The notes below the pieces were generated by a model. That model was given only the letters and a program-made list of their open reading frames with translations. It was not told where the DNA came from and searched no databases. A DNA stretch of 64,000 nt from an uncultured Candidatus Poseidoniales archaeon. GTDB lineage: Archaea > Thermoplasmatota > Poseidoniia > Poseidoniales > Thalassarchaeaceae. Numbering within the stretch: the first letter of the stretch is position 1; each line of letters begins with the position of its first letter. Where the stretch lies: assembly GCA_902511005.1 (NCBI GenBank), contig CABXDN010000006.1, forward strand, positions 7,846 to 71,845. The letters run 5' to 3'. Below, piece after piece: positions 10,588 through 12,687 of this stretch. The translations under genes and the position numbers were made by a program.

Positions 10588-12687
10588 ATGGCTAATAGTA
10601 AGATAATCACTATTCTAATCACTTCAATCTTGATAATGACTTATGTTTCAGGGTGTATCAGTAATGATAGTGATGAAGGTAGTCTAGGTACTCTAGTAAT
10701 TGCATATGAGATCAAAGATAATCTAGATGACATTGATTCAAACCCTCAGGTTTTCGCAGAATATCTTTCTGAGAAATTAAATTATGATATTTCTCTGTTC
10801 AGTGTTGACTCAGAGGGTGCCATGGTTGAAGCTTTGAGATTTGGTAATGCCGATATTGCATTGATGGATGCAGGAGCCGCATGGGTCGGTTGGCAACAGT
10901 ATGGCTTAGAAGTTTTAGCTGCAGATCTTAATGTAGATGGAAGGACATATTACAATGCTAATGCATGGGTGAAATCAGATAGTAACGTTGCTAGTGCTCA
11001 CCTAGATGATAACTCCCTCACAGATCCTTTTGCACTTTTATCTGGTAAAACATCTTGCCATACAGGATGGCTAAAATCAGTAGGTATGCTTCTCCCAATG
11101 GGTTACCTAATTGGCCTAGGTTATGCAAATATTATCGGAGACCCGAATGATGTAGAGACCATAAGAAATACTATACATGGATTTTTTGACTCTAACTCTT
11201 CAATTCCAGATACTGGAACTCCATATTACGGTTATTCGGGTGCTTTGAAATGTTTATCGGAAGGGAAGGGAGATGTTGCCTTTTTAGAAGAAAATAGTGT
11301 AGATATTCTTTGTAATAATGAGGTTTCTTCTCTCAATCAAGAGTGGTGCCTTGATATTGAGGAGTATACCGCATTACCTGCTTTTGGAAAATCCCCTAGC
11401 CATCCAGTGATGTATAATCCTAATTTTTTAGATTCAGAAATTACAAGTAAAATCACAAATGTGTTAGTTGAAATGAGTAGTGACCCCGAAGCGACTAATA
11501 TTCTCGAGAATATCCTAAATACCCCTGGTTTCATTGCAACAAATACTTCAGTACACCTGGGTAGTTATTCATCACTAATTTCTAATATACCGGGTATTTC
11601 CGCTTACTATGAAGATAAATTTTCTTTGAATACTTCAGTTTCTCCAGATATTGATAAAATTAAGATTGCTTTTGATTCAGATAAATTGTCTGATGATGTA
11701 GATAAAAATCCAGAACTCTTAGCTGATTTTCTCTCTCAGAAATTAAACATTGATGTTGAACTATTTATTGTTAATTCTCAAAACGAATTAATCAATAGTT
11801 TAGTAGACGGCCATGCCGATATTGCAATTGTTAACTCAGAATTAGCATGGGTTGGATGGAAACAATATGACTTGGCTGTAATGGCAGCAGTAGAAATGGA
11901 AGATAGTAGGACATATTCAGATATTTTAGCTTGGGTTAATTCGAACAGTTCAATCGCAGCGAGTCATTTAGACAATGATCCTTCGACTAATCCTTTTGAT
12001 TTGTTGGAAGGAAAAACATCCTGTCATTCTGATCCTTCAGATGTGGGAAGTATGATGCTTCCAATCGGTTACTTAGCCAAAAATAATTATCTTGAATTAG
12101 ATCAAAGTAATGATATAGATTATTTGTCAGAAATAGTTTATTCTTTTTTCAATTTTAATTCATCAATACCTAACCAAAATGATACATATTTTAGTGATTT
12201 AGGTGCCCTAAGATGTCTTTCTGAGGGCGAAGGAGATGTTGTATTTTTAGAAGAAAACACTGTTAATATGTATTGCGATAATACCGTTATTTCAGAAAAT
12301 ATGGATTGGTGTCTAGATATTGAAGAATATACTTCTCTCCCTGCTATTGCTCCTATTCCAAGCGATTCTGTAATCTATAATCCTGATTTGCTGGATATAC
12401 AGACAAGAACAGCCGTCTTGAATGCTTTAATTTCACTTAACTATGAGATGTATCTGGAAAATTTCAGTACACGAGGATCGGTCTATACGGGTTGTTATGA
12501 TATCTCAGTACACGTAATTGATGAAGAATCTCAGAAAAATACTTGTGGTTCTGAGATAATGGATAACATATTAGGTACGTCCGGATTAACCAGAGCAACA
12601 TCTCAAGAACATCTAGGGCAATATTCATCATTCGTAGCAATTATTCCTGGCATTTCTTCTTATTATTATGGTATCTTTGCAAACTAA
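10588..12687 (+). CDS. bilobal transferrin-like lipoprotein (two tandem transferrin/PhnD-fold lobes), putative Fe(III)-binding protein
   Basis: Lipobox VSGC. Lobe 1 motifs LMDAGAAW, TYYNANAWVKSDS, GKTSCHTGWLKSVGMLLPMGYL, YYGYSGALKCLSEGKGDVAFLEE, CLDIEEY and SPSHPVMYN parallel the human serotransferrin N-lobe ([73 protein letters not shown]). Lobe 2 repeats the architecture with substituted ligand positions. Confidence 0.8.
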   Translation: MANSKIITILITSILIMTYVSGCISNDSDEGSLGTLVIAYEIKDNLDDIDSNPQVFAEYLSEKLNYDISLFSVDSEGAMVEALRFGNADIALMDAGAAWVGWQQYGLEVLAADLNVDGRTYYNANAWVKSDSNVASAHLDDNSLTDPFALLSGKTSCHTGWLKSVGMLLPMGYLIGLGYANIIGDPNDVETIRNTIHGFFDSNSSIPDTGTPYYGYSGALKCLSEGKGDVAFLEENSVDILCNNEVSSLNQEWCLDIEEYTALPAFGKSPSHPVMYNPNFLDSEITSKITNVLVEMSSDPEATNILENILNTPGFIATNTSVHLGSYSSLISNIPGISAYYEDKFSLNTSVSPDIDKIKIAFDSDKLSDDVDKNPELLADFLSQKLNIDVELFIVNSQNELINSLVDGHADIAIVNSELAWVGWKQYDLAVMAAVEMEDSRTYSDILAWVNSNSSIAASHLDNDPSTNPFDLLEGKTSCHSDPSDVGSMMLPIGYLAKNNYLELDQSNDIDYLSEIVYSFFNFNSSIPNQNDTYFSDLGALRCLSEGEGDVVFLEENTVNMYCDNTVISENMDWCLDIEEYTSLPAIAPIPSDSVIYNPDLLDIQTRTAVLNALISLNYEMYLENFSTRGSVYTGCYDISVHVIDEESQKNTCGSEIMDNILGTSGLTRATSQEHLGQYSSFVAIIPGISSYYYGIFAN

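Follow-up and report, generated by a model that had tools for sequence, protein, structure and literature searches.

Most descriptions of transferrins treat them as proteins of eukaryotes, with the bacterial protein FbpA only as an analogue. FbpA and FutA ("bacterial transferrin") capture Fe(III) outside the cytoplasm, some of them with a synergistic anion, and feed an ATP-binding cassette (ABC) importer. Among the bilobal transferrins, melanotransferrin has only one iron-competent lobe. The multi-domain transferrins of algae (Dunaliella TTf and its relatives) contain a mixture of conserved and diverged domains and are used for membrane-associated iron uptake (PMC10372677). The stretch of 64,000 nucleotides analysed here, referred to as the window, was from a Poseidoniales (Marine Group II, MGII) archaeon (contig CABXDN010000006.1, positions 7,846 to 71,845) and contained a gene (10588..12687, + strand) for a 699-residue transferrin-family lipoprotein composed of two lobes. 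The six residues that correspond to the iron and anion ligands of transferrin were all retained in lobe 1, whereas none was retained at the aligned positions of lobe 2. The transferrin domain is already flagged by database names and precomputed Pfam matches, and the protein is a variant of a known family: a transferrin-type protein that is predicted to serve an archaeal ABC importer as its binding protein and in which one lobe has been retired. No paper on archaeal transferrin-like proteins, their ligand sets, lobe degeneration, or this gene cluster was found in the open-access literature.

The predicted iron and anion site of lobe 1

The bilobal protein was predicted to be an extracellular, membrane-anchored substrate-binding lipoprotein of the transferrin family. 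Its N-terminus, MANSKIITILITSILIMTYVSGC, was a signal peptide with the lipobox VSGC at its end (10588..10656, + strand), in which C23 (10654-10656) was the predicted lipid-anchored first mature residue. The lipobox residues G22 and C23 were invariant in an alignment of 43 homologues. The NCBI model of the identical protein P0001 was composed of 683 residues with a start at M17 (10636 versus 10588). A start at M17 would cut off the signal peptide, so that no leader would precede the lipobox cysteine. The longer form, from 10588, fits the biology. Lobe 1 (residues 31–348; 10678..11631) was linked to lobe 2 (residues 353–699; 11644..12684) by an inter-lobe linker (residues 339–352; 11602..11643). 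The Pfam Transferrin family (PF00405) matched three stretches of the protein with a score of 93.1 bits versus a cut-off of 20.3 (E value of 2.5e-26). An earlier reading made from the sequence alone (the sequence-only reading) had proposed a bilobal, transferrin-like archaeal lipoprotein, and the Pfam score, the structural matches given below, the invariant G22-C23 pair, and the almost exclusively Poseidoniales origin of the related loci agreed with it. The open reading frame (ORF), motifs, and residues that it quoted were all correctly placed.

Residues D94 (10867-10869), Y122 (10951-10953, the second Tyr of the Y121/Y122 pair at 10948-10953), Y216 (11233-11235), and H272 (11401-11403) were found at the positions of the canonical Asp, Tyr, Tyr, and His ligands of iron. 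Residue T159 (11062-11064) corresponded to the anion-binding Thr, and K163 (11074-11076) was located at the position of the anion-binding Arg. The lactoferrin counterparts of D94, Y122, T159, K163, and Y216 are D60, Y92, T117, R121, and Y192, respectively. When the PDB sequences were searched by phmmer with the bilobal protein as a single query, only the transferrin family was present among the 60 best matches (E values of 6e-20 to ~3e-08), and melanotransferrin was the best (6e-20). In these alignments, LMDAG was paired with LDGG at the Asp, and SCHTGWLKS with SCHTGLRRT at the Thr, with Lys in place of Arg; of the two Tyr residues in TYYNA, the second was aligned with the ligand Tyr. The Tyr of YGYSGALKCL (Y216) was likewise aligned with the transferrin ligand Tyr.

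A profile constructed from 15 single-lobe relatives matched melanotransferrin and ovotransferrin in the PDB with E values of 6.5e-60 to 1e-59. This alignment reached through the second hinge strand, where the His of PSH was paired with the His of VPAHAVV or VPTHAVV. The 15-sequence alignment contained 13 invariant columns, including D94, Y122, T159, Y216, and H272, with a mean column identity of 33%. Position 121 was variable (Y, H, F, W, or S), and therefore the ligand Tyr is Y122 and not Y121. The Lys residue at position 163 was present in every competent lobe, archaeal as well as ichthyosporean, and D-Y-T-K-Y-H was the signature of competent lobes. In the clade of the window, lobe 1 carried DYYTKYH in 111 of 118 clusters and an H272N substitution in 6. 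The sequence-only reading had matched D94, Y216, and H272 to Asp63, Tyr188, and His249 of human serotransferrin, and the computed alignments to solved transferrins likewise placed these residues at the canonical Asp, Tyr, and His positions. It had left the counterpart of Tyr95 between Y121 and Y122, of which only the aligned and invariant Y122 could be kept. Its assignment of Thr120 to T159 and of Arg124 to K163 was supported by the alignments, with the Lys as the norm of the family rather than a local change. As judged from the aligned residues, the whole of the Fe(III)/carbonate site is retained in lobe 1, with D94, Y122, Y216, and H272 for the metal and T159 and K163 for the anion, and carbonate would be used with Lys replacing Arg at position 163.

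When the protein was compared with the vertebrate transferrins (serotransferrin, lactoferrin, and ovotransferrin), homology was detectable by phmmer (~1e-20) and by the profile (~1e-60). Both have two homologous lobes of the same fold, with Asp, Tyr, Tyr, His, and Thr at aligned positions, and the motifs SCHTG, Y-x-GA-x-x-CL, GDVAF, WCLD, and PSH in common. However, the archaeal protein has Lys for Arg, only four Cys residues per lobe, and an independent duplication. It is also predicted to be lipid-anchored, with its gene located beside those of an ABC importer, and has a Cys-Tyr...His...Cys mini-domain in lobe 2. Owing to the lipid anchor and the adjoining importer genes, delivery would presumably proceed by docking to the permease and not by receptor-mediated endocytosis. 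The bilobal protein is the predicted binding protein of an ABC importer rather than a receptor-endocytosed carrier.

The full-length AlphaFold2 model had a predicted local distance difference test (pLDDT) score of 80.6 and a predicted template modelling (pTM) score of 0.65. Both lobes were folded, with pLDDT mostly 80-92 in the block of lobe 2, and the linker was disordered (pLDDT <50 at residues 339–350). When the model was compared with the PDB by using Foldseek, the 50 best matches were all transferrins, with melanotransferrin first (E value of 4.5e-28, probability 1.0), in agreement with the transferrin plan of two homologous lobes, each with a pair of α/β domains about a hinge. Superposition of the whole chain on transferrins gave a global template modelling (TM) score of only 0.3-0.39, because the inter-lobe arrangement was different or uncertain. 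The model of lobe 1 only (pLDDT 80.1, pTM 0.75) was superposed on holo transferrin N-lobes, as the sequence-only reading had suggested, with TM scores of 0.62-0.67. It was superposed about equally well on PtxB, AioX, ArrX, and PhnD. Since the transferrin lobes and the PhnD, PtxB, and AioX proteins are alike in fold, the fold was dropped as a discriminator: it fits both families, and the sequence together with the site residues points to transferrin. In the model, D94, T159, K163, and Y216 were located at or just before the N-termini of helices, with T159 and K163 both preceding helix 164–176, and Y122 and H272 were located in or beside strands. This placement agrees with the transferrin topology.

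Duplication of the lobe and loss of the site in lobe 2

Lobe 1 and lobe 2 were 41% identical, with an E value of 3e-93. In the lobe alignment, D94 was replaced by N416 (11833-11835), Y122 by S444 (11917-11919), K163 by D485 (12040-12042), Y216 by D537 (12196-12198), and H272 by D593 (12364-12366), while T159 was replaced conservatively by S481 (12028-12030). All six positions of lobe 2 were therefore changed, with a charge reversal at the anion site, and the lobe was still folded in the model. The pattern NYSSDDD was found in lobe 2 of 108 of the 118 close homologues. The losses named in the sequence-only reading were correct, with the two qualifications that the change of Y122 to S444 was missing from its list and that the change of T159 to S481 is only conservative. 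For the pairing of a competent with a degenerate lobe, the parallel drawn there to melanotransferrin and insect transferrins is fair.

Lobe 2 also contained a β-rich insertion of ~35 residues (residues 617–654; 12436..12549), recognized as a gap in the alignment of the two lobes, with strands at residues 620–645 in the model. It formed a module, C636-Y637...H642...C653, in which T634, C636, Y637, H642, and C653 were invariant in the alignment of 43 homologues.

The ratio of nonsynonymous to synonymous substitution rates (dN/dS) in the clade of the window was 0.04-0.11 for lobe 1 and 0.11-0.20 for lobe 2. In the both-competent clade, the values were 0.02-0.10 and 0.01-0.06, respectively. The dN of lobe 2 was 1.1-2.5x that of lobe 1 in the clade of the window, and nearly equal to it in the both-competent clades. 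The ratio of 0.11-0.20 indicates that lobe 2 is still under purifying selection, and the comparison between clades indicates a relaxation of about two-fold in a lobe that is clearly maintained.

In 120 clusters of bilobal archaeal proteins, the full signature was present in each of the two lobes. Since most Poseidoniales orthologues are competent in both lobes, a degenerate lobe 2 is the derived condition, and two competent lobes were the ancestral state of the archaeal bilobal protein. In a rough neighbour-joining distance tree of the lobes, which had no outgroup, archaeal lobes 1 and 2 formed one group and the eukaryotic lobes lay outside it. The duplication in archaea was therefore its own event, independent of the eukaryotic one: a single-lobe binding protein was duplicated in tandem and gave rise to the bilobal protein. 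Degenerate lobe 2 sequences had long branches and were separated from competent lobe 2; this placement was treated as an artefact because the degenerate and competent forms have the insertion in common. In locus L036 (7989..12500), from one Poseidoniales genome, the permease gene was preceded by two adjoining bilobal genes, first a both-competent one and directly after it a degenerate one (DYTHFD / PRTSEE), so that competent and degenerate types can coexist as tandem paralogues.

The nearest eukaryotic members were the ichthyosporean transferrins of Chromosphaera, Amoebidium, Ichthyophonus, Abeoforma, and Creolimax, which have the same D-x-Y-T-K-Y-H residues in their lobes. The algal and ichthyosporean transferrins differ from the archaeal protein in that they are eukaryotic, have no link to an ABC importer, and have separate domain duplications.

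The gene cluster and its putative operators

A gene for an FEA1-related lipoprotein (8706..10355, + strand) of the phytotransferrin/ISIP2a family was located directly upstream of the bilobal gene. The protein matched NF038033 with 393 bits versus a cut-off of 250 (E value of 1e-117) and PF07692 with 89.6 bits versus 25 (2.8e-25); the bilobal protein itself had no match to either of these families. At the C-terminus of the FEA1-like protein, six tandem repeats of ~35 residues, CYNxxxH-x9-10-C, were encoded at ~9633-10226. Each repeat had two Cys, one Tyr, and one His, with the first repeat weaker and without the His, and the orthologue in L004 had fewer repeats. No Pfam family covers the repeat module; it could serve for metal binding or for interaction, stapled by a disulfide. 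When a hidden Markov model of these repeats was used as the query, the insertion of lobe 2 was the sole non-self match (E value of 8.5e-4). Lobe 2 of the bilobal protein contained a single CYNxxxH-type module. Three were present in lobe 3 of a trilobal relative, P0119 (locus L002, 2018..5488), which is composed of 1156 residues and three competent lobes.

The association of the FEA1-like gene with degeneration was counted across 85 loci and the window, in the assessable cases. Among the loci in which lobe 2 was degenerate, 23 of 25 had an upstream FEA1-like gene, versus 3 of 50 both-competent loci (Fisher p 6e-14, without correction for phylogeny).

Downstream of the bilobal gene, a PhnC-like ABC ATPase (12769..13740, + strand) and a PhnE-type ABC permease (13737..14627, + strand) were encoded. 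These were followed on the − strand by a lipoprotein with the glucose/sorbosone dehydrogenase (GSDH) fold (14638..15831; PF07995, 1.5e-16), the lipobox of which was visible in the translation, and by a single-lobe transferrin-like protein of 356 residues (15871..16941). Residues D111, Y139, T176, K180, Y233, and H286 of the single-lobe protein formed the full signature. This protein had an N-terminal membrane anchor, and in related genomes its gene was likewise conserved next to that of the degenerate bilobal protein, always accompanied by the GSDH-like gene (L004-L006, L034, L040, L046, and L083-L085). The ATPase carried an unusual in-frame, strongly hydrophobic insertion of 79 residues (~13126-13362). 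Two membrane-like helices were predicted in it, between the N-terminal half with the P-loop and the C-terminal half with the LSGGQ motif. The 244-residue orthologue in L004, which was 80-85% identical, was without this insertion, and flanking repeats were looked for around it and none was found.

The six-gene module of FEA1-like, bilobal, PhnC-like, PhnE-type, GSDH-like, and single-lobe genes was conserved in L004, L005, and L006, and the gene order in L004 and L005 was the same as in the window. When the module was compared with the both-competent orthologues of Poseidoniales and Marine Group III (MGIII), such as P0271 and P0353, the protein architecture, the lipobox, the lobe 2 insertion, the PhnE neighbour, the operator, and the genomic position between AdoHcyase and G3P dehydrogenase genes were shared. 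The identities were 51-60% overall and 57-73% in lobe 1. The orthologues differed in having D-Y-T-K-Y-H in both lobes and no FEA1-like, GSDH-like, or single-lobe gene nearby. In L001, for example, the borders of the locus were syntenic and these three genes were absent.

A palindrome of 16 bp, TTTAGG-N4-CCTAAA, had four matches in the window versus 0.3 expected, and all were within the cluster. Two copies were located upstream of the FEA1-like gene (8630..8645 and 8673..8688), one with a single mismatch upstream of the phnC-like gene (12745..12760), and one upstream of the single-lobe gene (16952..16967). The positions were the same in L004 and L005, and the pattern recurred across loci; in L001, as in other both-competent orthologues, the pair was located directly before the bilobal gene. 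The half-sites were conserved and the central four bases varied, a pattern expected where a dimeric regulator binds. Because the palindrome is limited to the cluster and its positions are conserved, it is probably an operator. Its half-sites are reminiscent of DtxR/IdeR boxes, with a different spacing. A palindrome in L071, between sugar-nucleotide genes and an ORF of no known function, had no link to iron and was set aside.

Upstream of the bilobal gene, a conserved promoter-like element, AAAACTCACATTAAATTACTA, was found at 10530..10550 (+ strand). The motif ACTCACAT had four copies in the window (8575..8582, 10480..10487, and 10533..10540 among them), each of them located before the FEA1-like or the bilobal gene. 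The copy at 10533, followed by TAAATTACTA, was conserved even in a 72%-identical clade. The motif looks like a BRE/TATA-type promoter element (BRE, B recognition element) common to both genes. A hairpin formed by TTCGATGTGGGT and ACTCACATCGAA around a T-run (10368..10396) was located right after the stop codon of the FEA1-like gene, and a similar hairpin was present in L004 and L006. It looks like a terminator between the two genes.

Function of the cluster and origin of the family

The function that we consider probable is the capture of Fe(III) with carbonate by lobe 1 for ABC import, in a module that would serve as an iron-scavenging unit and with a lobe 2 that would not bind iron. Lobe 1, and likewise the single-lobe paralogue, would close over one Fe(III) and a carbonate in the manner of a transferrin lobe, and the captured Fe(III) would be handed to the PhnE/PhnC-type importer. 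The cluster would then be an iron-scavenging module, with a phytotransferrin-like partner, that has been annotated automatically as a phosphonate transporter. Lobe 2 would have given up iron binding and, with the arrival of the FEA1-like protein, taken on a role in structure, docking, or the binding of a partner. The transferrin site, the failure to reach the PhnD cut-offs, the FEA1-like neighbour, and the gene context of the trilobal relative were counted for iron capture. Downstream of the trilobal gene in L002, a 793-residue protein was followed by a set of Peripla_BP_2, FecCD, and ABC ATPase genes typical of iron-chelate importers. The FbpA/FutA proteins resemble the proposed system in mode of action only. 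They belong to another family of binding proteins, the partner permease here is of the PhnE type, and FbpA/FutA-type solute-binding families gave no match to the bilobal protein in the Pfam or NCBIfam output.

Several observations weigh against iron capture. In Pfam, the Phosphonate-bd family outscored Transferrin for the bilobal protein (136 versus 93 bits), the phosphite-binding PtxB was the top Foldseek match of the lobe-only model, and the permease passes the PhnE equivalog cut-off (TIGR01097, 229 versus 216.7 bits). Iron binding by lobe 1 is itself deduced from its residues, and the four ligands would cluster in the cleft on the basis of the alignment and their secondary-structure positions. 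Passage of Fe(III) through the permease is an assumption, and PhnE-type permeases are known for anionic substrates. The ATPase of the window carries the unusual hydrophobic insertion described above. The palindrome would mediate iron-responsive regulation, but the bilobal gene's own upstream region was without a copy, and a Pfam scan of 24 ORFs of the window yielded no DtxR- or Fur-type domain. In other FEA1-linked clades, K163, Y216, or H272 of lobe 1 was lost (DYTKFD, DYTKDN, DYTNHN, and DYTHFD), while the Asp, Tyr122, and Thr were always retained. Together with H272N in 6 of the 118 close homologues, this erosion indicates that the intact lobe 1 is the least-degenerate state and not a fixed design, and the iron site of the FEA1-linked subfamily may be on its way out. 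Several of the eroded clades had, like the window, a separate full-signature single-lobe gene and a GSDH-like gene.

A competing explanation of the cluster is a phosphonate, phosphite, or phosphate ABC transporter with a PhnD-type binding protein, in which the transferrin-like residues would be a relic without a role in iron binding. The best Pfam match of the protein was Phosphonate-bd (PF12974, 136.4 bits versus a cut-off of 27), the source databases name it an ABC-type phosphate/phosphonate transport substrate-binding protein, the permease is of the PhnE type, and the best NCBIfam match of the ATPase was PhnC, although at 134.7 bits it was below the cut-off of 266.1. The lobe model was superposed on PtxB, PhnD, and AioX (TM scores of 0.55-0.66) as well as on transferrin lobes, and phosphonate transport is regarded as a core trait of MGII (PMC6336850). 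However, the bilobal protein missed the PhnD equivalog (TIGR03431, 62.7 versus 261.1 bits) and the PhnD subfamily (TIGR01098, 83.6 versus 112.05 bits) by a wide margin, and PhnD, PtxB, and AioX, all present in the PDB, were not among the 60 best sequence or profile matches. The 13 invariant columns of the family include the metal and anion ligands of transferrin, the neighbouring gene belongs to the FEA1/ISIP2a family of iron-uptake proteins, and neither a C-P lyase nor a phosphonatase turned up in the Pfam scan of 24 window ORFs. A phosphonate-type role is therefore quite improbable. A somewhat better case, though still an unlikely one, can be made for a re-tooled lobe 2, in which the acidic D485, D537, and D593 with N416, S444, and S481 would make up either a new binding site (for a cation, or for a ligand that is cationic or organic) or a specific interface with the FEA1-like protein, so that the two lobes would both be active but in different ways. 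Saxiphilin, a relative of transferrin, binds a cationic toxin through acidic residues and provides a precedent. The purifying selection on lobe 2, the recurrence of NYSSDDD in 108 of 118 homologues and of the three Asp residues in the 72%-identical clade (L012/L013), the repeated appearance of Asp at the former Lys/Arg anion position in several degenerate clades, and the tight coupling of degeneration to gain of the FEA1-like gene all fit such a site. However, the six positions differed outside the close clade (ASHTDPE, ANIPDDK, PRTSEE, DYSSNS, and others), which argues against one shared new site; the dN of lobe 2, higher than that of lobe 1 here but about equal to it in both-competent clades, fits relaxation and not a new tight constraint; and no ligand can be named.

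A further alternative concerns the origin of the genes and not their function: instead of an old prokaryotic lineage, they would be a eukaryotic transferrin that was recently acquired by horizontal transfer, the donor being, for example, a marine holozoan or an alga. Their likeness to animal transferrins would then stem from this transfer. The ichthyosporean proteins have the same Lys variant of the anion site, and animal transferrins were matched directly by phmmer with E values of about 1e-20. Nevertheless, the archaeal lobes formed their own clade with a separate duplication, in a neighbour-joining tree that lacks an outgroup and does not fix the direction of transfer, and the family grades towards PhnD-like proteins without the cysteines. 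Single-lobe forms with a lipobox, in an ABC context, were present across Poseidoniales, other Thermoplasmatota, Heimdallarchaeota, and Nitrosopumilus, and relatives were found in 396 stretches of species-representative genomes. Such a transfer is accordingly unlikely, if slightly less so than a phosphonate-type role.

Returning to Fe(III) capture by lobe 1, a wider proposal can be held only tentatively and is more doubtful than the capture itself. The "phnCDE phosphonate transporter" of MGII would be a system for transferrin-based uptake of Fe(III)-carbonate, its single- and multi-lobe binding proteins would represent the prokaryotic stock from which the eukaryotic transferrins came and would join PhnD-type binding proteins to animal transferrin, and in the subfamily of the window the FEA1-like and transferrin proteins would act in concert, with lobe 2 as the adaptor between them. 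The protein described here is a real homologue of transferrin in sequence, its ligand set is complete, and its gene stands beside those of an ABC importer and a phytotransferrin homologue; the archaea that carry it are among the most abundant in surface ocean waters. If the protein binds iron, the hypothesis that transferrin originated from PhnD gains living, testable intermediates. In that case "phosphonate transport" in metabolic reconstructions of MGII (PMC6336850) becomes iron acquisition, and carbonate-dependent iron uptake with its sensitivity to acidification, as argued for diatoms, extends to planktonic archaea. The two-competent, one-competent, and partly competent forms, tied to gain of the FEA1-like gene, are a natural series for studies of lobe retirement or re-use.

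Close homologues of the bilobal protein were found by the hundreds in marine metagenomes. In a representative library of 1.84 billion proteins, only 348 clusters were matched at E <= 0.001, which indicates a small family. Its named prokaryotic members were all archaeal, from the four groups listed above, and relatives carry the NCBI name "PhnD/SsuA/transferrin family substrate-binding protein". The taxonomy of related loci was taken from the best 80 of the 396 stretches, almost all of which were from Poseidoniales (MGIIa and MGIIb) or MGIII; the closest of these, at 91%, was from the single-cell genome AG-319-P11. Loci L009 and L067 had the typical Poseidoniales arrangement under the names of bacterial metagenome-assembled genomes (Rhodobacteraceae and Rhodobiaceae), which are probably binning errors.

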